From: Candidatus Freyarchaeota archaeon
GTDB lineage: Archaea > Asgardarchaeota > Jordiarchaeia > Jordiarchaeales > Jordiarchaeaceae
Assembly (NCBI GenBank): GCA_030587365.2
Contig: JAUQZE020000611.1
Location: 1 to 40,949 of the forward strand
Length of the DNA stretch: 40,949 bases
Direction of reading: 5' to 3'
Shown here: in pieces, positions 1 through 40,949 of the stretch
Numbering within the stretch: the stretch's first letter is position 1
How the letters are laid out: every line of letters begins with the position of its first letter
Notes under the pieces: generated by a model
What the model was told of the DNA's origin: nothing
Database searches by the model: none
Seen by the model: the letters and a program-made list of their open reading frames with translations, nothing else
Position numbers and translations under genes: made by a program

Positions 1-815
1 AAGAACACTTCAGGAGCCAAGAATCGCTCACTGGAGATGGTAATGGTCTCACCATCTGGCAACATATATGTCTTCTCCATACCCGCAACCTTCTCAGCCA
101 GCTTCAGCTCCTTCTCAGGATCCAGCGCAACGTAGCAAAGCTTCTCCTTTATATCACGAACAATTTCTCGCTCTGCACTCGACACCAGAGAGTAGCCTCT
201 TTGCCTCAGCAGTCGGCGGAGATACTCTGTAAGGTCCCTCCCCGCAAGATCTATCCTGGTGATAGCATGGGTAAGTGCAAAACCTTCGTATATGGGTACA
301 ATGTGAGTTACGCCGTCACCGGAGTCAATTACCAGTCCGGTGGTTCGTCCAGAAGCATACAGCGAGAGTACTGCCTGCATGGCAACATACATTGCAGGTA
401 CATTGAAGGTCTCGAACATGATCTCCGCCATCTTCTCACGATTCTTACGCGGATTCAAAGGCGCCTCAGTCAGTAGCACGGGGTGCTCAGCGGGGTCAAC
501 CCTCAAATCGTTAAAGAAAGTATAGTGCCAAATCTTCTCCATAGCGTCCCAATCATTAACCGTACCATGCTCAACGGGATAGACTAGTCTTAGTACGCCT
601 CGTAGGTTTAGGGCTTCTTCTCCGATGTAGTATTCTCGGGTGTAGTGTTCTACGTCGGTCATGATTGAGGCGTATTTTGGGTAGCCTATGCATGTGGGCC
701 ATACGGATCTTGGTTGGTCTTCTCCTGCGTATCCGTTTTTGGTTAGTCCTGTGCCGTTGTCTAGGACTAGGGGTTTTGCGGCTACGAGTTCTTCTTCGGG
801 TGGTCCTATCGCCAT
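1..815 (-). CDS. Actin-family protein, eukaryote-like (Asgard 'lokiactin' class). N-terminal ~271 codons; the 3' end lies beyond the left window edge
   Basis: The reverse-strand frame is open from ATG at 815-813 (GAGGA ~8 nt upstream) to base 1. Translation: [47 protein letters not shown]...[89 protein letters not shown]...[24 protein letters not shown]...[22 protein letters not shown]. These blocks are almost identical to eukaryotic actin as I recall it. The ORF is absent from the track because no stop codon falls inside the window. Confidence 0.93.
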
Positions 816-990
816 ATCTTTTTCCTCTTCTTTATTTTTTTATGATTCATTTATTTTTAGTGATTTTTATTTTATTTTTTTGTGGTTGGTTTTATTGTTG
901 TTGGATGTGTTTTATCTTGTTTTTAAAATTAAGTTTTTGTTTGATTATATTATTGATTTTGGTTCTTTTAAATGTTTTTTTTACCTAATC
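816..990. repeat. Strand-asymmetric low-complexity tract (T-rich on +, A-rich on the actin coding strand) forming the actin upstream/leader region
   Basis: Direct reading of 816-990 shows runs such as tttttcctcttctttattttttt, tttatttttagtgatttttattttattttttt and gttttttttacc. G and C are very scarce on the + strand. The tract lies immediately 5' of the actin ATG. Confidence 0.6.
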
Positions 991-1391
991 TTTATCATCG
1001 ATATCATCCATAGAGTTGATGTTCCCTCTTTTGTTGAGGTTATACGAATGATGCCTGAGTGGTGGTGCAGGACCGTTCTAAGCATAGTTCTCGCTTAAAT
1101 TTTCATAATGAATATGAGGGATGCAGTGATTATTTTTTGAAGGTGGAAAACTGACTTTTGGTATTATCGGGGGCTTTTTGGGGTTAGATTTATTATTCCG
1201 TTTTGGGAATTTTAATTTGGTACTGATATGAGTTTCGTGCCCTGTTGGATTGTCCTGTGCCATTCTATCGTCTAGGGAAAAAGGCGCCACTCTCAGTTTG
1301 GTGGGTTGGTTTTAATATTTATTTGGAGTAATAATCTTCGGTGTTCGGTATTTAATTGTTGTTGGGTGTGTTGGATTTGAGTGATCCCTTG

Positions 1392-2057
1392 ATGATTGTT
1401 GAACGGGCTATCGGAGGCGTTGAGGCGCGTCGGATTATTTTAAAGGAGTTGTTAGAGGGCCCCAAAACGGGGTATGAGCTTAGGGATGCTTTGGCTAAGG
1501 AGTTGGGGGTTAATGTAGACGACATTAGTGACGCTAAATTGTATTTTAATCTGCAGGCGTTAGAGAATAGTGGGCTTATTAATCGGTATCGTGAATGGAA
1601 GAGTAAGTATGCAGAGATTGTTCCCACTATGGTGCAGGCGGTTCGTAGGTATCTGAATGTTAGGGCGCCTATTTTGTGTTTGTGCAGTTTAGACAGTGAG
1701 CCTCTACTGGTGAGGGAAGTGGGGCGCCGTTTAAGGGAGCAGACAGGAATCGACCCTGATAGCTATGTTTTTATTGCGGAGAGCGAGATGCGTACTAGGG
1801 TTGGTGGTAAGCCGGACAATGCGGAGATTATTTGGATTCCTGAGTATGCGATGCATGATTTTAAGAGGATTTACGAAGTAGCCAAGAGTATTGTGGAAAG
1901 GGAAATAGGCAGAAAAGAAGTCATTCTAGATGTGACTGATGGTACTCGGATTAGTGCTGTAGCTCTGCAGCAATTAGCTTGGGAGTACGGTCTGCGTCTC
2001 TTCTATCTTAAGGGTAAAAAGGACGAAGCCCGCAAAGTTGTTTGGATCCGTGAGTAA
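1392..2057 (+). CDS. Winged-helix transcriptional regulator with a C-terminal Rossmann-like (possibly CARF-like) domain
   Basis: The N-terminus RRIILKELLEGPKTGYELRDALAKELG...LQALENSGLI is a PadR/ArsR-type wHTH pattern. The C-terminal half alternates beta/alpha segments (ILCLCSL, YVFIAES, IIWIPE, EVILDVTDGTRISAVALQQLA, RLFYL), and the 'DVTDGTR' loop resembles the DxTGGTK/DxTHG loop of CARF domains. The ORF opens at TTG 1356; the first ATG at 1392 is preferred. The start is uncertain. Confidence 0.6.
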   Translation: MIVERAIGGVEARRIILKELLEGPKTGYELRDALAKELGVNVDDISDAKLYFNLQALENSGLINRYREWKSKYAEIVPTMVQAVRRYLNVRAPILCLCSLDSEPLLVREVGRRLREQTGIDPDSYVFIAESEMRTRVGGKPDNAEIIWIPEYAMHDFKRIYEVAKSIVEREIGRKEVILDVTDGTRISAVALQQLAWEYGLRLFYLKGKKDEARKVVWIRE

Positions 2058-2232
2058 AAATAGGCTTCAAATAGTATCTCTAGTAGCTCCTATATACGCT
2101 ATTTAAAGCATTTTTCATTATTTGCCTGAGAAATGTAAGCTTATAGGTGTTTGTCTAAAAAGAGTCTACTTGGGCCTTTGATGGGGGATAAAAAGAGTTT
2201 CTGTAATTTTTTAAATTCTGAAATATTCTTAA

Positions 2233-2955
2233 TTATTTCTGGAAGGCTTGATTCTTGTAGGTGGGTACGGTAGTTGTGATATTTAGTTGGCTGCAATATT
2301 GTACGTCTTTTTGGAATCCTATTTGTGTTAAGTATTGGGCGTTAGGCGTGTTGTATATTTTTTGGGTTATGTTTTTTGGAATGGGGCTGTTTTGAATGTA
2401 TTTTTTTATTATTTGGGCAGCAATGTAATCTTCTGGTGCGTATTCGTCAAGTCTTCCCACATGTATTATTGTGATTGGTCTTCTTGTGTTTAGAGCCATT
2501 CTTTTAGCTTTTTGGGCTACCGATTTGGCATTAATTAAGCAACCTATAAAAAGGTGTGGGGCGGCTCGGGCGTTGTTCGCTACTCTTGTAAGGTTAGTGG
2601 TGGTAAGTATTATGATTTTTCCTTTTACTATTTCCGGTTTGTATTCGAGTGGACTGTTTCCTAGTTGAAAATTTTGAATTTTGAACCCCTGTCTTTCTCC
2701 CGCGAGGACGACTTTGTCTCGGATTTCTTGTGCCAGTTTTTTTGCCTCTTCTACTGTTGCGGCTGTTATAATTTTTTTAGCCCCATTGTCTAATGCAGTA
2801 GTAATTGTTGTGCTGGCTCTTAAGGTGTCAACCAGCACTATAATGTGTTTTTTTTGTGCTGCTCTTAAGGCCCCTCGCGTCCCGAATGCGAGGTGAACTT
2901 CAAAGTCTCCCCCATCCTGATTTTTCTTTTCTGGAATTAGAGACATTTTTTTCAC
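2233..2955 (-). CDS. comB: 2-phosphosulfolactate phosphatase (ComB family)
   Basis: IIVLVDTLRASTTITTAL...LAGERQGFKIQNFQLGNSPLEY matches the ComB family pattern (VDVLRASTT...GER.G...GNSP). GTG 2955 overlaps the ComA stop (GTGA); an alternative ATG lies at 2946. Confidence 0.85.
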   Translation of the reverse strand: MKKMSLIPEKKNQDGGDFEVHLAFGTRGALRAAQKKHIIVLVDTLRASTTITTALDNGAKKIITAATVEEAKKLAQEIRDKVVLAGERQGFKIQNFQLGNSPLEYKPEIVKGKIIILTTTNLTRVANNARAAPHLFIGCLINAKSVAQKAKRMALNTRRPITIIHVGRLDEYAPEDYIAAQIIKKYIQNSPIPKNITQKIYNTPNAQYLTQIGFQKDVQYCSQLNITTTVPTYKNQAFQK

Positions 2956-3761
2956 TTTTTGGCTAGGAACTTAGTCATAGTATCCCCTCTTAGTCCTATG
3001 CGAAGTGTTTCGAGGGGAATAACATCGGTGGGTCTAATGTTTCCAAGGTTTACATTAGGTCCAAACCGTGTAATGAGCCATAACTGTTGGGATTTGAGTG
3101 GGGCTTCCCAGATAATTTTTTGGGATGGTATTTTGGCAACGATCTCTTCTATGAATGGTTCTTTTACTTTTCCTTCCTCGTCGTAGGGGCCTATTCCAAT
3201 TCCGCTTTCCCGAGCTTCGATGGTTACATAATCCGCCCCGGAGTCTAAATCGGTTTGAATTTGTTTTATTCGGTCGGAAATTTTGAGCTGGGCGTCCTCA
3301 GTTTTGATTTTTCTGCCCACTTCAGTTATTACGGTTTGAAACCCTAATTGTTTAGCCTTTTTTATTAGTTCCGATTTTTCCTGAGAGGATATATTAACAA
3401 CGCCTGTGGAAATTTCAATGGCGGTAAATCCTAGAGTTTTGAGTGTTTCTAGAAACGCTTCGGTTTTCCCTATAATTATAGCGGCTTCTAGGGCGGAACC
3501 TCCACTGAGTGTTTTTATTCCGTGGGAATGATAGAGTTTTAGCTTCTTTTTAAGTAGATTTTTAGGCTGTATGAGCCAAGTCGCCCATCCAAACTTGCAA
3601 TAATCAATATAATTCGCGGCACTTTCAATTACATCTTTTGTTGTAGGGAGGCCTTGGCCAGTATCAATAATGGCCGTTATTCCCTCGATTCTTGGTTTCT
3701 GTGTTCTATTTATCTCAGAGAGCTTGAAGATTTGTTTATTATGATTTGTCAAGCCTATCAC
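2952..3761 (-). CDS. comA: (2R)-phospho-3-sulfolactate synthase (ComA)
   Basis: YCKFGWATW, TIEARESGIGIGPYDEEGKVKE, EAPLKSQQLWLI and LETLRIGLRGDTMTK closely parallel M. jannaschii ComA (KFGWGTS, EGRESGKGKGLFDKEGKVKE, LETLRRGLRGDTFGK) from memory. The start is GTG. Confidence 0.9.
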   Translation of the reverse strand: MIGLTNHNKQIFKLSEINRTQKPRIEGITAIIDTGQGLPTTKDVIESAANYIDYCKFGWATWLIQPKNLLKKKLKLYHSHGIKTLSGGSALEAAIIIGKTEAFLETLKTLGFTAIEISTGVVNISSQEKSELIKKAKQLGFQTVITEVGRKIKTEDAQLKISDRIKQIQTDLDSGADYVTIEARESGIGIGPYDEEGKVKEPFIEEIVAKIPSQKIIWEAPLKSQQLWLITRFGPNVNLGNIRPTDVIPLETLRIGLRGDTMTKFLAKK

Positions 3762-3864
3762 CAGTAATTTTACTACCTTAGAAACCTACTGACTTTAGAC
3801 TTGAGCCCCTTTTTAATATTACTAGTTTTTTAAAAATGTTCTGGTTGGTTTTAATTACTAGTAT

Positions 3865-5139
3865 TTAGTACAGTAACTGGGGGTTCTCCTCTAAAATTTG
3901 GCTTATGGTTGCATCTTTAGATACTGGCCCAATTCTCTCGAAATTGTAATGCCTTTTTTCCCTTTCCACCCCCGTGTACCCTATAATTACCACATCACCT
4001 GAGTCGAATTGGTCTGCAAGTTCTATAGTTGCCTGAATGGCTATAGCTGCTGGAGACATTATTTGTATTTCGAAGATGCTTTCAGAGTTTTCGTAGATTT
4101 CCCTAGATTTCTCCTCGTTCACCTTGTGAAATAGCCCAAGAGTTTCCCTTACCACATATCTAACGTATGGGTAACAATTTTTAGGATATTCATTTTCAAT
4201 GATTTTTGCCCAAGTCGTTGAATTTATTCTCTGAGTGATTCTATCTTGCCCTTTTATGGCGGGGTCCACTATGGAGGCGCACCCTTCGGGTTGGACACAT
4301 ATAAGGTGTATGTATTCTCTAAGAAAGCCGTATTCCCTCAACCGTTCAATTGCCTGGTACCAACCTAGTAGACCATTACCACTCCCTGTGGGATGAATAT
4401 ACCAAACTTTTCCAGAATCCATTAAACTTCTCGCATGTTTTCCATATTTTTCATAAAGCTGAAAGTAGGCCTCATATGCCATAGTCTCTAAACCCGCTAT
4501 CTGGTCGGGATTTGCAAAACCTCCATCCAGTACATATGAAGTTTCTTCAGCCATTCTGATTGAAAGAGATGTAGCGTCAACGTATCGCCCATTAACCAAT
4601 ATAATACGGGTTCTTTCATTTTCATCATCGAAATTAATCAAATTTTCCATTTCTGTAGGTACGAATATGGCTAATTTTCTGAAGGCCCTCTGGTTATATA
4701 ATCCATAAGACGTTGCTGTGTTTCCCGTACTCGAAAGTGTAATATTTGGTATGTTGCGTTCCTTGTAAACCGATAAGGCTACCGATGCGCTTCTGTCTTT
4801 TATAGTTCCAGTAGGGTTAGTACTTTCATCCTTTACAAGAAAAGTAACATCACTGCGTCCCGCCATTCTAGCTATTGTTTGGTCCTCGTAAAGATTGGTT
4901 CGCCCCTCCCCCAAGTGAATCATATTTGAAGCAGGTTTTAGTAGGGGGAGCACTTTCTGAAAAATCCACATTCCAGGAAGGCCTCTTTCGGTTAAATCAC
5001 TTAATTTTTTAGGTCTGAGATTAGGATAACAATATTGAAGTATTCCCCCACATTCTTCACAGGAGGTCTTGTGCCCCACCGCAGGGGAAAGATTACCGCA
5101 CTCGAAGCACTCGTAGAAGATTTCACGCAGATATATCAA
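3865..5139 (-). CDS. Threonine-synthase-family PLP enzyme; cysteate synthase candidate by context
   Basis: There is an N-terminal Zn-ribbon (CFECGN...CEECGG), as in archaeal ThrC and cysteate synthase. The PLP-lysine motif is TNPTGTIKDRSAS (compare TGSFKDR). The protein is 424 aa. It sits between comDE and comAB on the same strand. The start is TTG. Confidence 0.75.
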   Translation of the reverse strand: MIYLREIFYECFECGNLSPAVGHKTSCEECGGILQYCYPNLRPKKLSDLTERGLPGMWIFQKVLPLLKPASNMIHLGEGRTNLYEDQTIARMAGRSDVTFLVKDESTNPTGTIKDRSASVALSVYKERNIPNITLSSTGNTATSYGLYNQRAFRKLAIFVPTEMENLINFDDENERTRIILVNGRYVDATSLSIRMAEETSYVLDGGFANPDQIAGLETMAYEAYFQLYEKYGKHARSLMDSGKVWYIHPTGSGNGLLGWYQAIERLREYGFLREYIHLICVQPEGCASIVDPAIKGQDRITQRINSTTWAKIIENEYPKNCYPYVRYVVRETLGLFHKVNEEKSREIYENSESIFEIQIMSPAAIAIQATIELADQFDSGDVVIIGYTGVEREKRHYNFERIGPVSKDATISQILEENPQLLY

Positions 5140-5310
5140 CTCCTTCTATTTAACGTTCTCTTAAATTTGAGGATTGGTTTTTAAAACTTGTTGGCCTTGA
5201 GAATTTTTCTTTCTCTATTCCCCTCTTTAAGTCTATTGCTTGTTTTTCCAATTCCTTAGAATATGTAAAAACATGTCTTTTCTATTTGCGGGAAAAGTTC
5301 GAGGATGCAA

Positions 5311-5892
5311 TTACGTCTTACCAAGTTTTTTAGGCTTATTCACTTTTTTAACCGCATTTTCAAATCTGTTCTTTATCTCTTGAGGGTGCATTTCTATTAT
5401 GGGCACGTCGGCGTTTCCTTTTTCGACTTTTGCAATAATTACTGTTAACCCTTTTTTAGATTTCCTATAAGCTTCTCTCAGTTTTTGAGGAGACTCCACC
5501 ACAAAAACCCTTTTAATCCCCGCAGCCCGCGCCAGAGCCGCTAAATCTGTTTTACCTGCAGTATAACTTGGTTGCCCCCCTGTCGACCCATAGGACTTAT
5601 TATCAAAAATAATTAATGTTAAATTTCTAGGAGACCAATTGGCTATCGTTACCAGAGAACCCAAGTTCATTAGGATAGACCCATCCCCATCCATGACTAC
5701 CACACGTTTATTTACCGATAAGGATAGTCCCAAACCTATGGAGGAAGCCAAACCCATAGAACCAAGCATATAGAAGTTTTCAGGTCTATCCCCTACACTA
5801 TATAGTTCTCTTGAGGGGAAGCCAAGATTGCAAATCACCAACTCCTTCTCAAGCTCTTCCACAATATTTTTAATAGCTTCTATTCTCTTCAT
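5311..5892 (-). CDS. comE: Sulfopyruvate decarboxylase beta subunit (ComE); the homologous phosphonopyruvate decarboxylase cannot be excluded by eye
   Basis: The ThDP-binding motif is VVMDGDGSILMNLGSLVT. At 193 aa the size matches ComE. It overlaps comD by 23 nt. Confidence 0.8.
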   Translation of the reverse strand: MKRIEAIKNIVEELEKELVICNLGFPSRELYSVGDRPENFYMLGSMGLASSIGLGLSLSVNKRVVVMDGDGSILMNLGSLVTIANWSPRNLTLIIFDNKSYGSTGGQPSYTAGKTDLAALARAAGIKRVFVVESPQKLREAYRKSKKGLTVIIAKVEKGNADVPIIEMHPQEIKNRFENAVKKVNKPKKLGKT

Positions 5893-6382
5893 TTTTCATC
5901 AATTCCATTTCTATTAGTACCGCTACTGGAACCTTATTACTATGAAATGACTTTTTCGCTCTTTCAAAAGCCTCAGGAATTTGTTCCGCATTTTTTGGCG
6001 TATAATGGGGGGCACCTATAGCGTCCAATAGCGCTGGAGTAGCTTTTCCCATAGGTATCTGTGCGGGGATTGTTTCTCCTTTTCCACCCCGCTGAGCTAT
6101 TAGAATTAGAAGTGGTATTTTGAAAACCATATTAAGAGAAGCAAGTGCATTAATTGAGTTGCCTAGACCACTATTTTGCATAATTAATGCTGGTGTTTTA
6201 CCCCCCAAATACGCTCCCGCAGCTATCCCCACACCCTCCTCTTCTCGAGTTACAGGCACATGCAATATTTCTTTTGCCTCATCCAGCATATCTAAGAGAT
6301 TTTTAAAAAGACTACTGGGAACAGATACAACAAAATCAACACCGAATCGAATAAGTTCTCTGAAAATAATATTTGATATCAT
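5870..6382 (-). CDS. comD: Sulfopyruvate decarboxylase alpha subunit (ComD)
   Basis: A 170-aa ThDP-enzyme N-terminal (PYR) domain: VPSSLFKNLLD...TREEEGVGIAAGAYLGGKTPALIMQNSGLGN. It is directly coupled to comE. Confidence 0.8.
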   Translation of the reverse strand: MISNIIFRELIRFGVDFVVSVPSSLFKNLLDMLDEAKEILHVPVTREEEGVGIAAGAYLGGKTPALIMQNSGLGNSINALASLNMVFKIPLLILIAQRGGKGETIPAQIPMGKATPALLDAIGAPHYTPKNAEQIPEAFERAKKSFHSNKVPVAVLIEMELMKNEENRSY

Positions 6383-6497
6383 AAATAAAAGCTCCCTGAG
6401 CGTAAATAATCAGAACTGTCACATTTTAGAAACTTAACCTATTTTAAATACTTTTCAGTTTTATCCTCATTTTTACTTGAAAAACATGAACCATTTT

Positions 6498-7181
6498 TCA
6501 CGTAGTGATACTGCTTTTGTGTAGGTTTTTAAGCGCTACCGCAATACGATAAAACGCAGTAAAATTGGCCAGTATTCCCGCAATTATTAAACCACAAATT
6601 GGCAATCTGGCGTCTAATGGATAAAGAATGGAAAATACGAAGAGAATGAACAATCTTTCTGATCTACCTGCTACACCGCGATCCAAATCTAGGTTATAGA
6701 CTTCCCCCTTAGATCTTGTATAACTCACCATTACGAATCCCGCTAAAGAAATAATCACCCACAGATTGAGCGGAACTAAAAAGTAAAAGTTTGCCGCTTC
6801 CCCCCAAAATAAGAATCCTAAAATCAGAATAAAATCAGAGTATCTATCTGCTAAAGAGTCCAGAATACCGCCTCTGGGCGAGGCGGAGCATGTAATTTTG
6901 GCTAGAGCGCCATCCACCCCATCTAATAGACCAGTAATAAATACTAAAACTCCGTAAAGAACGGGAAAACCATAAGAAATCGTGATAGATGCGAGTAAAG
7001 ATAAACCAAGTGCGAGGATAGTAACTTGATTAGGGGTTAAACCTGCACTTGCAAAACCCTTTGCTATTTTATATATTATTGGTTTGAAGATGCGCCGGAT
7101 TCTATATTTAGAAGGCAAACCGTGCCTCTCCAAACAAATTCTACACCGATGGAAATAAGAGATTTTTATACAGTACCGCAT
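6498..7181 (-). CDS. CDP-alcohol phosphatidyltransferase family membrane protein
   Basis: The full family signature D-G-x2-A-[RK]-x8-G-x3-D-x3-D is present in LLDGVDGALAKITCSASPRGGILDSLADRYSD. There are several hydrophobic helices. The longest ORF (to 7268) overlaps the upstream gene by 128 nt. Internal Met30 at 7181 is preferred, which still leaves a 41-nt overlap. Confidence 0.8.
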   Translation of the reverse strand: MRYCIKISYFHRCRICLERHGLPSKYRIRRIFKPIIYKIAKGFASAGLTPNQVTILALGLSLLASITISYGFPVLYGVLVFITGLLDGVDGALAKITCSASPRGGILDSLADRYSDFILILGFLFWGEAANFYFLVPLNLWVIISLAGFVMVSYTRSKGEVYNLDLDRGVAGRSERLFILFVFSILYPLDARLPICGLIIAGILANFTAFYRIAVALKNLHKSSITT

Positions 7182-8166
7182 TGGAATATTGATTATTCTC
7201 CTCCACAATAGCGTTTCCAAAAAGCACAGAGTTCTGGATAATCGCGCTAGAGGAAATCTCACACTCACTCATCATAGACACAAAGGGGCCTACTTTGCTC
7301 ATAGGGCCAATCTGGCAATTAGATTCGAGTACGGTGGGACCACTTATGATAGAAGTTCTATCTAACCCAATTTTCCACTTTTTCTTTATAGGTCCTCTAA
7401 CTTGTTTCGAGTTCTTGACATAGAAATTGTTTTGAGGTATCAATCCTTTTATAAGTGCAAACTTGTTCGCCCTTAGAACATCAGATATAGAGTCCACATC
7501 GAACCAATAGTTTTTAGAAACATCAATGAAGCAAACTGGTTGGCCGTCTCGGATGAAGAGATTTAATGCATCCAAAAGTATATTTAATCCATTTTCAAGG
7601 GCCTCGTGAATGTAATGAAAAATCGAGGAGTTGCATAGAAGAAGGCTAACACATAGATGCGGCTCCCCCCCTTTTAAAATAGGTTTACGGAATCCAGAAA
7701 CGCGACCATATTTTAACCCCGTGGGGCAGGTATACACAGTAGTTCCCAATTTGGAGTCAGAGGCGATATCTACAGCAATAGTCACTCCCTCCCTTGAATG
7801 TTTTTTCTTCACAGTTTCGATCGCCCTAGGATCTATAATAAAATCTCCAGGGCTCACAAAAAAATTATTTGAAGAAATTTCTTCCTCCGCAGCAAGTAAT
7901 GAATGTATGGGCCCTAAATTATAGTTTTTAGACTCCCTATACCTTATCGACACCTCGTACTGAGCACCATCCCCTAATTGATTTCTTATCTTACTTCCAA
8001 GATGCCCTGTCACAATTATGAAATCGGAAATTCCAGCCTTCTTATATGCCAGAATAAGGTGCTCAATTATGGGACGATTAGCTATGGGGATGAGCGGCTT
8101 GGGAAGGAATTGAGATAGGGCACCCATACGTGTACCCTTGCCAGCGGCCAGTATTACAGCTTCCAA
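7141..8166 (-). CDS. Nucleotidyltransferase (NDP-sugar/alcohol pyrophosphorylase-like) with a C-terminal left-handed beta-helix
   Basis: MEAVILAAGKGTRMG...LPKPLIPIANRPIIEH is the classic NTP-transferase G-loop. The C-terminus has hexapeptide-like repeats (ISGPTVLESNCQIGPMSKVGPFVSMMSECEISSSAIIQNSVLFGNAIVEEN). The start is TTG, with GAGGT ~9 nt upstream. Confidence 0.8.
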   Translation of the reverse strand: MEAVILAAGKGTRMGALSQFLPKPLIPIANRPIIEHLILAYKKAGISDFIIVTGHLGSKIRNQLGDGAQYEVSIRYRESKNYNLGPIHSLLAAEEEISSNNFFVSPGDFIIDPRAIETVKKKHSREGVTIAVDIASDSKLGTTVYTCPTGLKYGRVSGFRKPILKGGEPHLCVSLLLCNSSIFHYIHEALENGLNILLDALNLFIRDGQPVCFIDVSKNYWFDVDSISDVLRANKFALIKGLIPQNNFYVKNSKQVRGPIKKKWKIGLDRTSIISGPTVLESNCQIGPMSKVGPFVSMMSECEISSSAIIQNSVLFGNAIVEENNQYSNAVLYKNLLFPSV

Positions 8167-8532
8167 TTCTAAAAACCTCAGAAGAATAATATGTAAACTA
8201 ATTTTCGTTAGTGAAAAGTGGTTTATTACGGTTTCTTTTCGGTAACCTTAATTATCCTTTTTCCGATCTAGTATCCTATCCCTCCCTTTTCCCTAAAAAT
8301 TTGGATGTCTCTCTGATAGAGCCTTCTTAGCAACATACGTCTTGGTGGCTTTCTGCCCCATTTTCATTCCTTGGAGTACCAGACGATGGTGGGGGCTAAG
8401 ATGTCAAACATTTTTTTAACTTTTGAATTAACCAGAATGATATAGATATTTTTCCAAACGGGTTCATTGGATTCCTCATGTTTTAAATAGAGATGTTGCC
8501 TCTAAAATTATAATACTCGTCAGGAAAAAATA

Positions 8533-9183
8533 TTGGGGCTTAATGGATTGAGGAAAGTTAAGATTGATCCTGAAAATCCGGACATGAAGATCATTAGAGA
8601 AGCGGGAAGGCTACTGAGAGAAGGAAAACTGGTAGCGTATCCAACAGACACAGTTTATGGTTTAGGGGCAAATCCGTTTGATGTTAAAGCAGTTCAAAAT
8701 TTATTGAGAGCCAAAAGAAGAAAGTGGGAGTTGGGGCTACCCCTACTGGTATCAGACGATAGTATAGCCAGAAAAGTAGCTGAGTTCACACCGGACGCAG
8801 ACCTACTCTCAAAAAATTTTTGGCCCGGAGGATTAACTCTTATACTAAAACCCCTCATTAAAATACCTAGCATTGTTACAGGGGGCAAGGATAGTATTGC
8901 TATTAGGCTACCCGCCCATAAAGTTCCACAGTTACTAGCAAAATGTTTAAATGGAATTTTAATAGGAACCAGTGCAAATATCTCAGGTCAACCTCCGGCA
9001 TTGAACGCAAAACAGGTTCAAGAACAAATCGGAAAAGATACGGATATGATATTAGATGGTGGAGAAACTTTAAATGCTCAACCTTCCACAATTATAGATT
9101 TAACCCAAAGACCAGCAGTAATTCTTCGCGAAGGCATAATCGGTGCGCGGGTGCTTAAAAAATTTATAGATGTCAAAGATTAG
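8533..9183 (+). CDS. L-threonylcarbamoyladenylate synthase, single-domain YrdC/TsaC type
   Basis: KIDPENPD...LREGKLVAYPTDTVYGLGANPFD...IAIRLPAH...GTSANISGQPP are YrdC/Sua5 motifs. At 216 aa there is no Sua5 C-terminal domain. The start is TTG at 8533; the first ATG (8584) would remove the conserved N-terminus. Confidence 0.85.
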   Translation: MGLNGLRKVKIDPENPDMKIIREAGRLLREGKLVAYPTDTVYGLGANPFDVKAVQNLLRAKRRKWELGLPLLVSDDSIARKVAEFTPDADLLSKNFWPGGLTLILKPLIKIPSIVTGGKDSIAIRLPAHKVPQLLAKCLNGILIGTSANISGQPPALNAKQVQEQIGKDTDMILDGGETLNAQPSTIIDLTQRPAVILREGIIGARVLKKFIDVKD

Positions 9184-9222
9184 AGGCTCCTTGAATTAGC
9201 TTTGATTAAGAATAAGGAGCAT

Positions 9223-9801
9223 CTATCTCTGTAAAGTTAACAATGATGACCTCTCAATGCAATATCTTGTTAGAGCATCAATGTAGGAATTCCAGTCATC
9301 TGAACGGCGAATTGTATCTAGCTCAATTTCAGTAATTTGGAAAAAACTACGTATCTTTCTAAACTTATCTTCATTAATAGATAAAACTGCATCGTTCTCC
9401 GTACCTTTTGTTATTTGCAAAATCTTTCTGCGGGCCTCTGTAAGAAGATCTTGGGTATCACCAATTAAAATAATTCCCATACTTCTGGTACTCTGCTTTA
9501 CTCCAAAGTTCTCCACTGCTACACTGATCTGCCTCTGACCCGAAACATAGAGTAAACATTCTACTGACAAGTTATTTGAAATATTTTTACCATATCTGAA
9601 AGCTTTTATAGCATTCAAAGCACCAAAAAATAGGTGCTCCCAAGTTGCGATTAAAGAAGAATCAAAAAGTTGAATCACCACCCTTGACTCTTTACTTAGT
9701 TCATTAACGCTATTGAGAAGAGAAGGCAAGTCCACTCCCTGTGTCTCTAATCCGAAAATTCCAATAAAACGTCGGTTATTCTCAACATTTTTGATTATCA
9801 T
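9223..9801 (-). CDS. cgi121: KEOPS complex subunit Cgi121
   Basis: LLYVSGQRQISVAVENFG and AVLSINEDKFRKI parallel the archaeal Cgi121 blocks ASGQRQI..AI..G and LEINEDK. Confidence 0.75.
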   Translation of the reverse strand: MIIKNVENNRRFIGIFGLETQGVDLPSLLNSVNELSKESRVVIQLFDSSLIATWEHLFFGALNAIKAFRYGKNISNNLSVECLLYVSGQRQISVAVENFGVKQSTRSMGIILIGDTQDLLTEARRKILQITKGTENDAVLSINEDKFRKIRSFFQITEIELDTIRRSDDWNSYIDALTRYCIERSSLLTLQR

Positions 9802-9860
9802 AAAGCTTTACTTCCTTAAGCACCTTTTCAATAAACCTTTGTAGAAACTGTAATCCTTTT

Positions 9861-10490
9861 CTAGTGTTTGGCGTTCATCGAGTATTTTTCGATTACCTTA
9901 ACCCAATTAATAAAGTAGTCTATATATTTAGGTCGGATTTTAGTCCGTGCTATCTCCTTTTTTATCTCCTCCAAATTTTTTCCCTCCTTCCCTAATTTCC
10001 TCACTAGGCTACTAATTGTTTCAAAAATCTCCCAAGGATAAATTATCCAAGCCTCTGTCTCTGAAATATAGTAGTCTGGGCAGACTATCGATCTTGGTTT
10101 TCGATGCAGAGTAGAGATCCTCACCTCAGCTGCTCCCTTGCTTCTCAGACAGTCTGCAGTTACTTTAAGACTTTTGCCCGTATCTGCAACATCATCACAA
10201 ACTAGTACCTTTTTATTCCTAACATCTACAGAAACGTCCTGGGTTATGCAAGGGATATCCCGCGTCTGACTTATGTCCTCATAAAATTCTACCCGGATAT
10301 TCGCCACCTCCTTTATGCCAAGTAAATCTGATAGTACGCGTGCAACAATCCATCCTCCACGAGCAATGCCAACTATATAATCAGGTCTATATTTGTCTTT
10401 AACAATCTTTTTCGCTAATTTTATTAGTGATTCGTAAATCTCATCCCAACTGGGAGCAATATATTTGATTTTATCCAACAAAAACACCAT
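9861..10490 (-). CDS. Purine phosphoribosyltransferase (type I PRT, Hpt/Gpt-like)
   Basis: The PRPP-binding loop is KKVLVCDDVADTGKSL. The upstream block DYIVGIARGGWIVARVLSD is typical of archaeal Hpt. ATG 10490 is preferred over GTG 10508. Confidence 0.8.
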   Translation of the reverse strand: MVFLLDKIKYIAPSWDEIYESLIKLAKKIVKDKYRPDYIVGIARGGWIVARVLSDLLGIKEVANIRVEFYEDISQTRDIPCITQDVSVDVRNKKVLVCDDVADTGKSLKVTADCLRSKGAAEVRISTLHRKPRSIVCPDYYISETEAWIIYPWEIFETISSLVRKLGKEGKNLEEIKKEIARTKIRPKYIDYFINWVKVIEKYSMNAKH

Positions 10491-10705
10491 AAGCTTGATT
10501 TTGTTCACTTTTTAGATAATAACTATTTAGGATACTATCCTGATTAAATCTATTATCTATTTCGTATATTATTGTTGGAAATCATTATGTGCAAGTGATA
10601 TTTAGTTGAAAAACCTAATGGGCATTAACCGTTTTTGCACCATACAAAATCCTTTTTTACTTTATTAGCGATTATTAGTTAGACCATCAAATTGAGGGAG
10701 CACAA

Positions 10706-11437
10706 ATGATAGTTACTCTACAATTCGGCTTCCAGTTTACGTTGGACATACCTCTGCTAGTTAGACTGGCTCCGCTATTTTTAATCCTAGCAGGATCAGC
10801 CGCGGCGGGAAGGCTTCTTGAGAGAGCCTTTAGAGTTGTGCCTGTTGTAGGCAGTGGAGTACAACTGTTAATACGGATAATAGTTTATTTAGGTATAATA
10901 ATAGGCATATTCTGCATAATTTCGGGTGTACAGACGTGGCTAACAGGTAACAATATATTACAAAGCTTTTCTATCCTGTATCTTGCGGCGATTAGTGGGG
11001 TTCAAAGCGTTTACGGTTTTACGTTCTATATGCTGGGCTTAATTATTCAATATAAGTATTATTTCTGGCTTCACCCTGCTTATACCTATGGTATTCTGAT
11101 ACTAGTGGGTTTCGCACTTTTAATGAAACCAATAAAGGCAGTTCCTTGGGCGGCAGTTATTGCATTACTAGTAGGAGGCGGTGTTACAGTACTAGTATGG
11201 AAATACTTCAACATTACTGAAACAACCTGGCTAATCGTGGTATTCATAGCAGTTCTACTCCTTACATATTTACTTTTCAAGTTCATTGAAGATTTACTCA
11301 AAATACTCGCAATGATTCTCACATTTCCCATAATTGCCGTGCCATTTGGCTTAATTTGCATTGTTCAAGGAATACTATTGCTAATTGGTAGTTCTTTGGG
11401 AGCCATACTTGCACCACTATTAGGTTCGATAATCTAA
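10706..11437 (+). CDS. Polytopic membrane protein of unknown function
   Basis: A 243-aa ORF that is almost entirely hydrophobic helices. The ATG is preceded by GAGGGAG. I recognise no motif. Confidence 0.6.
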   Translation: MIVTLQFGFQFTLDIPLLVRLAPLFLILAGSAAAGRLLERAFRVVPVVGSGVQLLIRIIVYLGIIIGIFCIISGVQTWLTGNNILQSFSILYLAAISGVQSVYGFTFYMLGLIIQYKYYFWLHPAYTYGILILVGFALLMKPIKAVPWAAVIALLVGGGVTVLVWKYFNITETTWLIVVFIAVLLLTYLLFKFIEDLLKILAMILTFPIIAVPFGLICIVQGILLLIGSSLGAILAPLLGSII

Positions 11438-11645
11438 AATTTATACTAACTCAGAAGCCATTCTTACTTTAGGAATGGTCAGAGTAGTGAAAAGTAGGAA
11501 TCCACTATTATTCTACAAAAGCCCCTTCTCCATATCTGATAGCATAGAAAATGTGAACGGGTATCAGTCAAAAGGAAAAACAAAAATTTAACAATAAATC
11601 ACATATGATCATTCAGCGTTCATAAATTCATTTTAACTTTATTTT

Positions 11646-12644
11646 TTAATCCAGAGGGCCTGGTGGTGCATTTTCTAACTTTTCTTCAATTATTTTGAGT
11701 AAATATTTGATAACTTTAGTATAGCTATTTTTCCCATTAAAACCGGCGGCGGTTGAGTGCCCCCCACCGACACCTTCAACTGTGGCGCCCAGTTCCTCCA
11801 TAAGTTTACCCAAATGAATACCTGTTTTTTTGTAAATGTTCTGTGTGGATCTAGCACTTACTCTAATTTCCTCTTTTCTTTTGGCTACCACTATTGCTAT
11901 GTCTGCTCCTGTCTCGATAAGTGCTCTGCAGGCACTAGCCTCATAAGAACTTACATGTGAAATGGCAATTAACCAATTTTTAATATCATGTATTTGCGCT
12001 CTGTTAATAGCCTTCAGCCTTGCCATCCTTTCTGATCTAGGCATTGTAGTGCTAAGTCTCTCAATTACCGCGTTGTAGTCCGCGCCTGCGTCTATAAGAT
12101 CCGTGACGGCCCTAAATGTGGAAGCGTTTGCTAAAAGAAAGTGTTTACTATCGTAGGTTATTCCCATAAGCAAAGCCATAGCGGTGTCCGGACTCGGTTT
12201 TATGCCTGCTTCCTTAAAAAGGTTGTACACTATTTCGGCAGTTGAGGTAGATGTCTCATCAATTATTAGGTGCTTGGTAAATTGGGTTGCAGATATATGG
12301 GGTGTGTGATGGTCAATGAGCAGTATCGGTTTTAAAAGGTTTACCACTGAGCGGTAGCAACCTAGTTGTTCAATATTATTGGTATCGACGATTATAAAGG
12401 CGTCAAACGTATCAATCGTGATATCTTTAGCTAAAGGTACCTGTAGATCCTCTAACACCCCATTTGAGACTTTACTTATATCATCGGCGGCTATTAAGGA
12501 TTCAATTTCTGGAAAAAGGTGTGCGACCAGCTTTTTTATGGCGTAAGCACTACACAACGCGTCTGGGTCTGCGTTTTGGTGACAAATAATTAAAATCTTT
12601 TGAATATGATTAATGAAGAAGTTTTTAAAAGTATTTAGGATCAA
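11646..12644 (-). CDS. DHH/DHHA1 family phosphoesterase (NrnA/RecJ-like)
   Basis: Motifs HQNADPDALCSA, IIVDT, DHH and the DHHA1 motif GGGHSTAAG are present. The start is TTG. Confidence 0.85.
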   Translation of the reverse strand: MILNTFKNFFINHIQKILIICHQNADPDALCSAYAIKKLVAHLFPEIESLIAADDISKVSNGVLEDLQVPLAKDITIDTFDAFIIVDTNNIEQLGCYRSVVNLLKPILLIDHHTPHISATQFTKHLIIDETSTSTAEIVYNLFKEAGIKPSPDTAMALLMGITYDSKHFLLANASTFRAVTDLIDAGADYNAVIERLSTTMPRSERMARLKAINRAQIHDIKNWLIAISHVSSYEASACRALIETGADIAIVVAKRKEEIRVSARSTQNIYKKTGIHLGKLMEELGATVEGVGGGHSTAAGFNGKNSYTKVIKYLLKIIEEKLENAPPGPLD

Positions 12645-12646
12645 TG

Positions 12647-12937
12647 TTATAACCCTAATAGCCTTCCATCTATAGCCTTCATAGCTACTCTCAGTGCCTC
12701 TTCTGCTAACATTTTATTTTCCTGTTCAGATAAAGACTCAATTTCGAGATTTATTTCGATGGTTAAATTCATGTTTTCTTCTGAACCTAATTCAACAATG
12801 ATTTCCAACTGGTTAACTTCTTTCTTAGGAACTTTTGAGTAAATATATTTCTTTATTTCGTCCTCAGCAAGAATACAAAGTTCCTCGAGTTCCTCCAATG
12901 TTAAATTTTTCAAATCTCTCTTCTTTTGTTCTTTCAT
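12647..12937 (-). CDS. Small acidic protein of unknown function (possibly DUF3194-like)
   Basis: A 96-aa ORF packed tightly between pfdB and the DHH gene (1-2 nt gaps), with an ATG start. The family assignment comes only from memory of gene neighbourhoods. Confidence 0.55.
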   Translation of the reverse strand: MKEQKKRDLKNLTLEELEELCILAEDEIKKYIYSKVPKKEVNQLEIIVELGSEENMNLTIEINLEIESLSEQENKMLAEEALRVAMKAIDGRLLGL

Positions 12938-12938
12938 T

Positions 12939-13307
12939 TTAGCCCGCCGGGCTTAAACCTCGTTGCTGAAGCGATTCCTGAACTTTTGCCCGCATCTCCT
13001 CTAGCTGCTTCCTTGAACGCTCTTCTTGTCTCTGAAGAGTTTTTACCCTTAATTCAAGTGTTTCCTTTTTATCCCGAAGTTCTTCCTTAACCTTTTCGGG
13101 TTGGGTTTTTATCAGTAACGTTCCAACCATTTTGTAAACACTGCTTCCCTGCTCAATTTTTTCGAGTTCACTTAAAGCCTGTTCTGTTTCCCTCAACTGA
13201 ATTTCAGATTGAGACCTTTGAGTGATGATTATTTCCAATTTTTGTTGCAGTTGCTGCAGCATTGATATTTGATGCTGAACCTGTGGGGGAATTTCATTTC
13301 CTGACAA
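12939..13307 (-). CDS. pfdB: Prefoldin beta subunit
   Basis: Coiled-coil / beta-hairpin / coiled-coil layout: QHQISMLQQLQQKLE...VYKMVGTLLIKT...LELRVKTLQRQEE. The start is TTG, with AGGAGG 7 nt upstream. Confidence 0.88.
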   Translation of the reverse strand: MSGNEIPPQVQHQISMLQQLQQKLEIIITQRSQSEIQLRETEQALSELEKIEQGSSVYKMVGTLLIKTQPEKVKEELRDKKETLELRVKTLQRQEERSRKQLEEMRAKVQESLQQRGLSPAG

Positions 13308-13318
13308 CTACACGCCTC

Positions 13319-13564
13319 CTAAACAAGTTCGTTAATGTCATAAATTATTTTTAACCATCTGAGATACGAGTTTAAAGCCGCTCTGAGCGCAACCGTATCC
13401 TCAGCCTTAATTTCTAAGCTTATAATGTCACCATCTCTTTTTAATTTACCTATACAACGCTCGCTAGCACCGGAAATAACTTCAGGAAAAAGAGCTCTGA
13501 AAACAACTTCCAATAAATTCCTAGGCAAAGTAATTTGTATAACTCCTTTTGCATTGTATTTCAT
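13319..13564 (-). CDS. pcc1: KEOPS complex subunit Pcc1
   Basis: An 81-aa protein. The blocks FRALFPE...ISLEIKAEDTVALRAALNSYLRWLK match the Pcc1 pattern (A.D..aLRAa.NsyLRW). Confidence 0.8.
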   Translation of the reverse strand: MKYNAKGVIQITLPRNLLEVVFRALFPEVISGASERCIGKLKRDGDIISLEIKAEDTVALRAALNSYLRWLKIIYDINELV

Positions 13565-13735
13565 TAAATTTACTCCAAATACTTTTTGTGCCTTGCCCTA
13601 AAATATTGGTAATCTCAAATTGTTACAATTTTTAATCAATATCCTATTTTCGATAGAAAATTTTCTTTTTAGGTCTCCTTTTTATGTAGACTAAAGCTAG
13701 AAGGGGCATCAAATATTTATGAGGATGGGAAAAAT

Positions 13736-14026
13736 TTATTGTGGTGGCTTATTTTTCTCCGAGCTTAACGCAACTGTGTCTATGATATGTCTTTTTTCCT
13801 TGCCTAAAGGAGTTTCTGGAAGATAAGCTCCACCCGTAAAGGTATGTCCACATTTTCTGCAGGACCATACTCCAGTAGACACTCGTTTAACCGCTTTAGT
13901 TGCACACCGGGGGCATTTATGAAAGGTACTCAGTCCTTCCAAAATGGTTTTTACACGCTTTCTCACCTTTGTACCATATCTTGCTCCAAACCTACCAGTA
14001 ATACCTACCTTCTTAGTTCTCGGCAT
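13736..14026 (-). CDS. rpl37ae: Ribosomal protein eL43 (L37Ae)
   Basis: TKKVGITGRFGARYG...CPRC...WSCRKCGHTFTGGAY. The start ATG shares one base with the rrp42 stop (TAATG). Confidence 0.95.
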   Translation of the reverse strand: MPRTKKVGITGRFGARYGTKVRKRVKTILEGLSTFHKCPRCATKAVKRVSTGVWSCRKCGHTFTGGAYLPETPLGKEKRHIIDTVALSSEKNKPPQ

Positions 14027-14847
14027 TATGAGACCTCCTGCCTCTTTAAAATTGGTAAAATATATTTTTCTCTAAGTTCTTTTGTAATATCCCTAGCTAT
14101 ATCTACGGCGTTGTAAATATCTTGTTGGGTTAGGGCTCCACGCTCTCCTTTTTGGATAGCTACTAGGTTACCGTTCGCATCATAAACAATAGTAATTCTA
14201 CAATCCATAACATTTTCTTCCTCTTCTATAGGATCCACACAGAGTTGGTCGCCTATTTTTGCGAGGGTCAATGAAACTGGTATGTTGGTCACAGGTAATG
14301 GCATTTTTTCACTTAGCAATTTTACTTTTCCATTCTCAACTTCGGTTTTTGGAAGCAAAGTGGTAAGTAAAGCACAAACACCAGCTAGAGAAGAAGCGTC
14401 AAATAGATTCCCACCGTGATCAATTATGTATATGTCCACGAAAAGAATCCAAACCTTTTCATTGGGAATTATGCAGAGTTTGTCCACATCTACCATTTTA
14501 GATTCACGGATACCCCTATCAACAACCCTTGCAAGTTCGACAGCCTCTTCGCTGGGCGGTCCTGATTCAAAATAGGGAGAAGCCATTGGTATAAACTCTG
14601 CAGCAACAGTTACGACACCCGAGTTGGGAGTATCGGGGTAGGGGGTTCCAATTTCTGCACTTACCCCCACGATAACCTTTGTGTTACCAATAGTTACCCT
14701 AGCAGAGCCACTGGCCTTCTCCACCACTCCCGTTTCAATAGTTATCGGACGTACCTCTCTTAATCCACGGCCGTCCACCCTCTTTTCTCTAGCTACAATT
14801 GATCTAATATACTTTGATTCAATTTCAGAGATAAGACTATGAGGCAT
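14026..14847 (-). CDS. rrp42: Exosome complex RNase PH-like subunit Rrp42
   Basis: An RNase PH fold protein (REKRVDGRGLREVRPITIETGV...). Its position after rrp41 follows the canonical operon. Confidence 0.9.
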   Translation of the reverse strand: MPHSLISEIESKYIRSIVAREKRVDGRGLREVRPITIETGVVEKASGSARVTIGNTKVIVGVSAEIGTPYPDTPNSGVVTVAAEFIPMASPYFESGPPSEEAVELARVVDRGIRESKMVDVDKLCIIPNEKVWILFVDIYIIDHGGNLFDASSLAGVCALLTTLLPKTEVENGKVKLLSEKMPLPVTNIPVSLTLAKIGDQLCVDPIEEEENVMDCRITIVYDANGNLVAIQKGERGALTQQDIYNAVDIARDITKELREKYILPILKRQEVS

Positions 14848-14850
14848 TTT

Positions 14851-15627
14851 TCATCCCCCATTTTCCTGCTCATCTGCTTCTTCTGAAGCCTCACCTTGGA
14901 TATCAATATACTTTTGGATTAAGATTTCCCTTTGCATTTCGTAAATCTTTTGGCAACCCTTTACAGCCAGTTCGTAGGCTTCGATGAATTCCTCTCTGGT
15001 CATTATACCATCCATCTGTAATAGTGTAGTTAGTCCTTTGCGAGGCATTATGGCAACAGGTAAGTCCGCCTGGCCATTTTTATCCTCCAAATCACTTAAA
15101 TCCAACGCAATTTTACCGTCTATCTTTCCAGCGGCAACAGCAGATACCAAATCCCGTAAGGGAATTCCAGCGTCCGCTAAGGCTAGGGAAGCGGCGGTTA
15201 TACTTGAACATCTGGTACCTCCATCGGCTTGGATTACTTGTATATAAACATCTATGGACGCTCTAGGATAATATTTTAGAAAAACTGCGGGAGCAAGAGC
15301 CTCTGTTATAACTTTTGAAAGTTCTGTTTCTCTCCGAGATGGCGCTGGGCTCTTTCTTTCCTCTACAGAAAAGGTAGCCATTCTATAAATACACTGTAGT
15401 AGAGCCTCGTCGGGCTGTGCAAGGTGGCGTGGGTGTAATTCCCGCGGACCATAGACTGCTACAAGAATCTTACTTTTTCCCTGTTCAATGTACGCAGAGC
15501 CATCTGCTCTTGCCAGAACTCCGACTTCTAGTTTAATGGGTCGAAGTTCATCCAATCTTCTTCCATCAAGTCTCAAATTGTCTTCATTTAGTAACTTTAT
15601 CTGCGAAGGAAAGTGAAAATCTTCCAT
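14851..15627 (-). CDS. rrp41: Exosome complex exonuclease Rrp41
   Basis: [46 protein letters not shown]...QADGGTR is the RNase PH catalytic-subunit pattern. ATG 15627 is preferred over TTG 15642. Confidence 0.92.
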
Positions 15628-15645
15628 TACGATCACCAACAAGAT

Positions 15646-16323
15646 TTACTTATGAATTAACTCCCTTACTCTATCAGTTAAGCCAGAGGTGTGGGCCTCC
15701 CGTTCAATCTGTCTTATAGCTTTAATAACCCTCTCCTCGTCTTCGAAACTCTTTCCAGAAACCCAAACAACACCATTCTGACCAATAACAATCTGACATC
15801 CTGTTTCCTTTTTAATCATATTTATCATTGAACCCTTCCGCCCGATTAAACGCGGAATCTTCGTGGGTAAAATATTTACTAAATATCCGCCTTGAAGTTT
15901 GCCAAGTCCCCGTTCTTTTGTGGTAAGCAGAGGCGCCCGCGTCCGATCAAATGCCATTATCTTCGCAACCAGTGTATCTCCTACATCAAAATACCGGCGA
16001 AGGTCTTCTTTTAATGGATCCATACGCCTTTCAAAAATGTTTACTGGATGCATTGTGGCTTGGTAGGGTGAATTTATGTCAATTCTCCATGAAGTCATCT
16101 TTACATCTATTACCTTTCCGATAACCACATCACCAACTTTTGGAATGTACGCGCCTTCAAAAGCAACAACTTGCACAACTTTGCCCTTCGCCTCTACCAA
16201 GCCTACTACAGAAGAGTAGATACAATTCCCTTCCCTAAACGTACCTTCGCCAGGCTTATAACCTCCCTCTGCGAGTAACTCGCCAGGTACCACAATTTGT
16301 CTATTTTTAAAATATAATGTCAA
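15646..16323 (-). CDS. rrp4: Exosome cap subunit Rrp4 (S1 + KH domains)
   Basis: IVVPGELL, an S1 region (GDVVIGKVIDVKMTSWRIDI) and a KH region (IPRLIGRKGSMINMIKKETGCQIVIGQNG). The start is TTG, with GGGGG upstream. Confidence 0.92.
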   Translation of the reverse strand: MTLYFKNRQIVVPGELLAEGGYKPGEGTFREGNCIYSSVVGLVEAKGKVVQVVAFEGAYIPKVGDVVIGKVIDVKMTSWRIDINSPYQATMHPVNIFERRMDPLKEDLRRYFDVGDTLVAKIMAFDRTRAPLLTTKERGLGKLQGGYLVNILPTKIPRLIGRKGSMINMIKKETGCQIVIGQNGVVWVSGKSFEDEERVIKAIRQIEREAHTSGLTDRVRELIHK

Positions 16324-28507: not shown

Positions 28508-29203
28508 GTGTTCGAAGTGCAAAAAAGGCTGTTTGATGAGGCAATTTCCAGAAAAGATTTTATTGAAGCATATAGGATAGCAAAATACGTTTTGCAAGAT
28601 GAGAAAAAAGCTTGTGATCTTTACACAGCTGCTTTGGGTTCTATTGGAAAATTGATACAAACTGGTATGGACTTAAAAGAGAGGGGTGATTATGAGGAGG
28701 CGGCTAAACTTTTTTTGCGCTGTGCTGAATTTTTTGAAGGGGAGAGAGATTACGGTAGAGCAAGCGGGTTTTTTATAGAAGTTGGTGATTGCTTCTCAGC
28801 GACAAATAATGCGAACAAGGCGCGAGACAGTTTTGTGCGCGGATACGAACTTGCCATCCTGGACTGGAAAAATTTTAATCTTGCTAAGAAAATCGCTTCT
28901 CTGAGTGTGTTGCTCTTTGTCCTGACTTCTTTAATTAATGAAGATATGATAGGAGCAAAAAAGATCTTTAACCTAGTAAGATCTTCTTTAGAAGAGAAAG
29001 AGCGCCGAAAGTTGCGTAGGCAAGACTATTACTGGTTAGCCAAACAGATTTACACCTCTCTTCTTAAAGAGAGTAAACTAGACTGGGTGAATCTTAAAAA
29101 TATGCAAGCAAGATACGAGAAAACCGATTTTTTAACTCTGATGCAGGATCTATCCAAATCATATTATACAGTAAATAAGTTTCTAGAGAAATTTCAAAAA
29201 TGA
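28508..29203 (+). CDS. TPR-like helical-repeat protein, alpha-SNAP-like periodicity; function unknown
   Basis: A 231-aa all-helical pattern: ACDLYTAAL...GDYEEAAKLFLRCAEFFEGERDYGRASGFFIEVGDCFSATNNANKARDSFVRGYELA. The start is GTG and there is no upstream ATG. Confidence 0.6.
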   Translation: MFEVQKRLFDEAISRKDFIEAYRIAKYVLQDEKKACDLYTAALGSIGKLIQTGMDLKERGDYEEAAKLFLRCAEFFEGERDYGRASGFFIEVGDCFSATNNANKARDSFVRGYELAILDWKNFNLAKKIASLSVLLFVLTSLINEDMIGAKKIFNLVRSSLEEKERRKLRRQDYYWLAKQIYTSLLKESKLDWVNLKNMQARYEKTDFLTLMQDLSKSYYTVNKFLEKFQK

Positions 29204-40865: not shown

Positions 40866-40949
40866 GGGCGCATGGTCTAGTGGTTATGACACCGCGTTCA
40901 CACCGCGGTAAATCCTTTTTTGGGGAGCCGAATCCCCGGTTCGAATCCG
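40866..40949 (+). tRNA. tRNA-Val (anticodon CAC), truncated at the window end, with a ~21-nt insertion between the anticodon arm and the T arm
   Basis: Acceptor GGGCGCA. D arm GTC/TAGTGGTTAT/GAC. Anticodon arm CCGCG-TTCACAC-CGCGG, with U33, anticodon CAC at 40899-40901 and A37. T arm CCCGG-TTCGAAT-CCG... runs off the edge. There are 26 nt (40909-40934) where 4-5 are expected. Confidence 0.8.

Follow-up and report, generated by a model that had tools for sequence, protein, structure and literature searches.

The window analysed here is a stretch of 40,949 nucleotides (the whole of contig JAUQZE020000611.1 of a Candidatus Freyarchaeota archaeon), and its left end cuts through a gene for an actin that is read on the minus strand. 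Upstream of this gene lie a highly conserved non-coding block, a divergent gene for a PadR-like protein and a cluster of coenzyme-M-type biosynthetic genes. The features of this region are the following.

Positions 1..815, minus strand: 5' portion of the actin gene with codons 1-271 of 384 and 2 further nt, ended by the contig edge and with no stop codon.
Positions 824..827, minus strand: Shine-Dalgarno-like GAGG, 8 nt before the ATG, read from the sequence and of putative function.
Positions 923..1026, minus strand: ultra-conserved non-coding block of 104 bp, 108-211 bp before the actin ATG, a candidate promoter/operator.
Positions 975-982, minus strand, in the block: A8 run, followed by a TATA-like TTTAAAA at 966-972.
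Positions 985-1011, minus strand, in the block: mini-ORF of 8 codons, ATGGATGATATCGATGATAAAGATTAG (MDDIDDKD).
Within 923-1026, minus strand: direct repeat with two copies of GATGATA, read from the sequence.
Positions 1356..2057, plus strand, divergent from actin: PadR-like winged-helix protein of 233 aa (Pfam PadR 25.2 bits, cut-off 27).
Positions 2233-2955, minus strand: ComB of the coenzyme-M-type cluster.
Positions 2952-3761, minus strand: ComA of the same cluster.
Positions 3865-5139, minus strand: PALP enzyme with an N-terminal DUF7129, same cluster.
Positions 5311-5892 and 5870-6382, minus strand: split TPP-enzyme ComE/ComD-like genes, same cluster.

In the minus-strand translation of positions 1-815, 271 codons run without interruption from the ATG at 815-813 to the window edge, which confirms the open frame claimed in a preliminary description of this DNA. 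As stated there, the frame is missing from the accompanying ORF list, which instead contains two plus-strand ORFs, at 201-476 and 340-525; both exist and lie antisense to the actin frame. The omission does not make the actin frame doubtful, because the list leaves out ORFs that run off an end. The Pfam search proposed in the same description identified the 271-aa fragment as an actin: it matches PF00022 (Actin) with 299.9 bits against a cut-off of 27 (E = 3e-89), covering profile positions 5-282 of 410, and no family other than PF00022 was found at E = 0.01 in this search. In BLASTP, the fragment shares 165 of 256 residues (64%, E = 3e-130) with human beta-actin. All ten runs that had been described as identical to eukaryotic actin, including LPDG, are identical in this alignment. 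The GAGG upstream of the ATG is kept in six of seven aligned genomes.

The gene could be completed from a nearly identical contig, which was found by look-up of a neighbouring window protein. This locus (L009), part of a 222-kb contig of GCA_038849455.1, matches window positions 1-15,892 at 99.92% DNA identity, extends beyond the left edge of the window and contains a complete actin gene for 384 aa at its positions 15079-16233. Over the first 271 actin codons, the two contigs are one synonymous base apart. The C-terminal 113 residues, with the adenine loop and part of subdomains 1 and 3, lie outside the window and are read from this 99.92%-identical contig; in this way, the leftward extension that had been suggested for the C-terminus yielded the full protein. 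The gene is already known, as GenBank contains both forms, annotated as actins: MEX2753567.1 ([quoted passage not shown]) matches the fragment at 100% identity, and MBS7251059.1 ("actin family protein [Candidatus Jordarchaeia archaeon]") is among the entries for the full-length sequence. A Logan assembly from the same population (L012, 5104-6471) has an actin call of 455 aa. There, a frameshift after "YSVWI" (around codon 351) swaps the C-terminus for unrelated sequence and is probably an assembly error.

In a collection of 5.8 billion proteins, the fragment has its nearest relatives among Asgard actins, with one protein at 99% identity. Identity is 90-92% for Freyarchaeota/Jordarchaeales, 88% for Njord- and Atabeyarchaeia and 80-85% for the Heimdall, Hod, Odin and Hel groups. 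The full-length protein is 100% identical to the proteins of Ca. Jordarchaeia RPF2 and QZM_A3 and 98.7% identical to that encoded on the closed Freyarchaeia chromosome CP147778.1 (Ca. Freyarchaeum deiterrae), and together with Ca. Jordarchaeum madagascariense these form the set of identical or 98-99% identical proteins. It shares 89% of its residues with the actins of other Jordarchaeales and 78-84% with those of other Asgard classes; for L. ossiferum, HC1 and the human and yeast proteins, the values are 78.0%, 73.3% and 62%, respectively. Among solved structures, the best match is PDB 9wc4 ("HC1 actin"), which scores 468 bits with the fragment and 657 bits with the full-length protein, compared to about 383-387 and about 540-553 bits, respectively, for eukaryotic actins; every one of the 60 best PDB matches is an actin. 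The 150 best matches in a HMMER search of all representatives consist of actin-type proteins throughout, with identities of 46-67% and with many long fusions among them. Pfam MreB_Mbl appears only as a weak or faint precomputed match.

To place the protein, we calculated a neighbour-joining distance tree of 36 sequences, which covers the actins of 32 Asgard loci, human and yeast actin and the 9wc4 sequence (taken from an alignment). When the best actin match is taken from every one of the other 31 Asgard loci, the window protein is 78-100% identical to it. In this tree, the window protein lies in a Frey/Jord sub-clade inside the Asgard actins, the two eukaryotic actins form a separate long branch, and class-level groups are recovered for Thor, Atabey, Loki, Hel, Heimdall and Frey/Jord. 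This placement, which realises the phylogeny proposed earlier in part, holds for an outgroup-free tree of Asgard, human and yeast actins. Crenactin, MreB and ParM belong to the same ASKHA/actin superfamily, but are far less similar to eukaryotic actin than the window protein is (roughly 20% identity for crenactin). Conventional eukaryotic actins are typically more than 80% identical to one another. The window protein falls outside the eukaryotic actins, with 62% identity to the human and yeast proteins and a separate branch in the tree. The impression that its likeness to actin exceeds that of crenactin, MreB and ParM was correct, as the best matches are Asgard and eukaryotic actins. Judged by its sequence, the product of window 1-815 belongs to the Asgard "Lokiactin" clade of actins and is neither a eukaryotic actin nor a crenactin, MreB or ParM.

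These data also support the earlier suggestion that the DNA comes from an Asgard archaeon and that the gene encodes a eukaryotic signature protein, and they place the source in the class Freyarchaeia or Jordarchaeia, which are two names for one class (PMC11291895). As had been stated, the rest of the window is archaeal, with genes for PolD DP2, ArcS, exosome Rrp4/41/42, KEOPS, proteasome alpha and SBDS. One conserved actin copy was found per Asgard locus examined. In the MAG of Ca. Borrarchaeum yapensis, two full-length actins are located on different contigs (L022 and L023); the two copies pair as sisters in the tree, with 84.3% and 83.5% identity to the window protein, and could go back to a recent gene duplication or to strains mixed in one bin.

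The composition of the fragment bears on the alternative that bases 1 to about 1000 are eukaryotic DNA chimerically joined to an archaeal contig, or a contamination. The fragment has a GC content of 0.50 and a GC3 of 0.52 compared to a GC3 of 0.357 +/- 0.039 for the 30 other genes of the window, its synonymous-codon score is low (z = -2.6), and four other contigs end at window positions 975-979, shortly upstream of actin. However, the gene order ComDE-PALP-ComA-ComB-PadR(divergent)-actin recurs at 99.8-99.9% identity in L009 and L012 and at 72-98% identity in other species and genera, i.e. in L015-L017, in the closed 3.58-Mb chromosome CP147778.1 (L018), in Ca. Jordarchaeum madagascariense (L021) and in the metagenome contigs L095 and L096. 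Moreover, the protein shares 78-100% of its residues with Asgard actins, compared to 62-64% with eukaryotic actins, and a GC3 excess of actin over its neighbours is present in 15 of the 16 Asgard loci compared (including L009, L018, L021, L022, L038, L045, L061 and L062). Two complete genomes of Heimdallarchaeum give z values of 4.0-4.6 for this excess, and P. syntrophicum MK-D1, which is in culture, gives 5.2. The continuity check called for in the preliminary description is thus answered by the junction to the archaeal genes, which is found again in eight or more further assemblies, one of them the closed chromosome. Because synteny is conserved, the protein is of the Asgard type and the GC3 excess is family-wide, chimerism is excluded, and we regard a eukaryotic or contaminant origin of these bases as vanishingly improbable.

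The GC3 excess fits an expression-linked codon bias, presumably in an abundant protein, and also agrees with a report that Lokiactin is expressed several-fold more highly (PMC9834061). A high-GC3 actin on an Asgard contig is normal and no sign of contamination. In Ca. Borrarchaeum, z values for actin GC3 are as high as 18. Atypical GC3 and codon use would also be expected if the gene had recently been transferred horizontally into Freyarchaeia, either from another Asgard lineage or from a eukaryote. By contrast, the class-level groups in the actin tree are consistent with vertical descent, synteny is stable across the Freyarchaeial genera, and the compositional offset is shared by the family as a whole; a recent transfer is therefore extremely unlikely.

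Several lines of evidence address the function of the protein. The phosphate-1 loop DNGTGLTK (residues 19-26) and the phosphate-2 loop DSGDGVTH (residues 164-171), the latter with the H161 equivalent, are intact within the window fragment, which also contains MQAV with Q147 and RDIKEKL. The equivalent of Q137, as well as H73, K213/E214 and residues of the target-binding cleft, are present, and the adenine loop SGGSTMFPG (residues 310-318) is found in the full-length copy on L009. An 18-sequence cross-class actin alignment has 192 invariant columns. In comparisons with two other Jordarchaeia species, actin dN is 0 at a dS of 0.26-0.32, and dN/dS is 0.008-0.011 in comparisons with L018 and L001, at a nearly saturated dS of about 1.8. 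Purifying selection on this actin is very strong. An AlphaFold2 model of the full-length orthologue (P0001), based on a shallow alignment of 18 sequences, is of low confidence, with a mean pLDDT of 41 and a pTM of 0.40; the fold assignment therefore rests on the 73% identity over 374 residues to the solved chain of 9wc4.

Asgard genomes encode several actin homologues, and of the four in L. ossiferum, three group with ARPs (PMC9834061); the window gene could accordingly encode an Asgard ARP paralogue instead of the canonical filament-forming Lokiactin. Yet, the protein shares 78% identity with an L. ossiferum protein in which both Lokiactin-specific antibody peptides published in PMC9834061 are present, and the range of 78-100% identity to the best actin matches of the 31 other Asgard loci contrasts with the much greater divergence of ARPs. 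Likewise, a dN/dS of about 0.01 agrees with published accounts of Lokiactin as the most conserved group. We consider an ARP very unlikely. Because of the 78.0% identity and the presence of the antibody peptides in the L. ossiferum sequence, we identify the window protein as an orthologue of the cytoskeleton-forming protein of L. ossiferum.

Based on these data, we conclude with high confidence that window 1-815 encodes the N-terminal 70% of a single-copy, vertically inherited Lokiactin orthologue that is cut by the contig end. The identity of the protein, its clade membership, its genomic authenticity, its intact catalytic motifs and the purifying selection on it are observed, while polymerisation, high expression and a cellular role most likely follow by analogy. 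By homology, the 384-aa protein would bind ATP together with a divalent cation between the two lobes by means of the phosphate-1 and phosphate-2 loops and would hydrolyse ATP using the residues equivalent to Q137 and H161. As in its orthologues, it would then undergo ATP-dependent polymerisation to F-actin-like double-stranded filaments, and these filaments may serve as a scaffold of the cell body and of protrusions. Double-stranded filaments and such a scaffold have been demonstrated for the orthologues of L. ossiferum (PMC9834061) and HC1 (bioRxiv 10.1101/2025.02.26.640444).

The spacer between actin and the divergent PadR-like gene is 540 bp long and contains the 104-bp block, outside of which alignment is minimal. 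Between the window and L018, i.e. between genera, 96 of 104 block positions are identical (92%), compared to 80 of 170 four-fold sites of actin (47%; binomial P = 6e-23). The block occurs in 10 of the 94 loci examined and in two metagenome contigs, in each case as a single copy and exclusively upstream of actin. The block is, thus, under strong constraint and specific to actin. A structured RNA is not supported: matches to Rfam were at chance level alone (E about 4-5) and the fold z is -1.6. The scan for sigma-70 promoters and terminators is uninformative for an archaeon.

From its sequence, the A8 run together with TTTAAAA plausibly forms an archaeal BRE/TATA core, and the block as a whole may be an as yet unproven promoter/operator module for actin. 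The PadR-like gene adjoins actin in L009, L012, L015-L018, L021 and L095 and also has a raised GC3 (0.479), and its product is a candidate for a local regulator. The pairing with actin is restricted to the sub-clade of the window. A general association of actin with the PadR-like gene throughout Jordarchaeales was considered and rejected, as the ORFs before actin in L003 and L007 are dissimilar. We tentatively suggest that the block is a Freyarchaeia-specific cis-regulatory module for actin with a promoter core, a GATGATA operator, a possible leader ORF, the PadR-like protein as a partner and tuning by A7/A8 variation, a reading that we hold to be possible but somewhat short of probable. The conserved element offers a small, testable lead on archaeal control of actin expression.

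The four contigs that stop at window 975-979 (L011, L013, L014 and L001) were assembled independently and all end inside the A8 run; L001 is from a different species than the window, and L016 and L021 have A7 in place of A8. A dispersed repeat was considered as the cause of these breaks and rejected, as the block is present once per genome and only before actin. The shared breakpoint possibly results from strain-level indel heterogeneity or from low coverage in AT-rich DNA. If the block is a cis-regulatory module, the A7/A8 variation and the assembly breaks could reflect heterogeneity at the population level that tunes actin expression.

The search for partners of actin among neighbouring genes, which the preliminary description had recommended, gave no Pfam match to profilin or gelsolin within the window or across the 4.3 kb that adjoin it on the left. 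These 4.3 kb encode an apgM-type phosphoglycerate mutase, a SLOG/LDcluster4 protein, two T2SSF-like membrane proteins and a T2SSE ATPase. In more distant Jordarchaeales, actin is preceded by CofE/CofD/CofC and followed by a radical SAM gene, DUF2095 and a GTPase.

Elsewhere in the window, several features deserve mention. The genes at 2233-6382 on the minus strand form a cluster for coenzyme-M-type sulfonate biosynthesis, and CoM synthesis has earlier been predicted for Freyarchaeia (PMC11291895). At 19336-20835 on the minus strand, a fused MtrA-MtrH methyltransferase of 499 aa is encoded in a class of genomes without MCR; such non-methanogenic MtrAH fusions are known from Freyarchaeia and Atabeyarchaeia (PMC11291895). 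A tRNA gene at 40866-40949 on the plus strand is cut by the right contig end (Rfam 34.6 bits, model positions 1-61 of 71), and ARAGORN made no call for it in the window. Two plus-strand genes have weak Pfam similarities, both below threshold, to eukaryote-type families: the 231-aa protein of 28508-29203 to SNAP (25.4 bits) and the hexapeptide-repeat protein of 32493-33029 to dynactin subunit 5 (19.9 bits, cut-off 40). These similarities probably reflect generic TPR-like and left-handed beta-helix repeats.

Asgard actin ranks among the key eukaryotic signature proteins that speak for an archaeal origin of the eukaryotic cytoskeleton. The family to which the gene belongs is well studied: it was already known in 2015, its members have been seen in cells, and structures have been solved. 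Lokiactin is reported to be present in all Asgard classes (PMC9834061), and the closest known counterparts of the window protein include the Lokiactin of Ca. Lokiarchaeum ossiferum (Rodrigues-Oliveira et al. 2023, PMC9834061), with 78% identity over 381 residues. The two proteins share the length class of 378-384 aa, an insertion of two residues in the D-loop, Met in place of K336 and the C-terminus HRCF. However, the window protein is from another class (Freyarchaeia/Jordarchaeia) and has a slightly longer N-terminus, and its gene is accompanied by a conserved upstream block of its own and by an adjacent PadR-like gene, neither of which was seen beyond the sub-clade of the window.

HC1 is a cultured strain of Hodarchaeales in which actin filaments have been seen (bioRxiv 10.1101/2025.02.26.640444). 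The window protein is colinear with HC1 actin (PDB 9wc4) without gaps and 73% identical to it over 374 residues (9-382). About 27% of residues differ; for instance, the window protein has NPRKNREKM and PAMYVAM where HC1 actin has NPESNKLKM and PAFHVSM.

Conventional eukaryotic actin (human ACTB, yeast Act1; about 160 distinct sequences in the PDB) is more distant, with 62% identity for the full-length protein and 64% for the fragment. The motifs for nucleotide binding and catalysis are identical or conservatively substituted, and relative to beta-actin, subdomain 1 is 70% but subdomain 2 only 32% identical. The hydrophobic plug is FNPGVVGLDAMPL in the window protein and FQPSFLGMESCGI in eukaryotic actin, and the window protein further differs by the two-residue insertion in the D-loop, by Met at K336 and by a C-terminus that is one residue shorter. 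Because K336 is replaced by Met, as in L. ossiferum, and subdomain 2 is so divergent, filament dynamics and the binding of partners may differ from those of eukaryotic actin.
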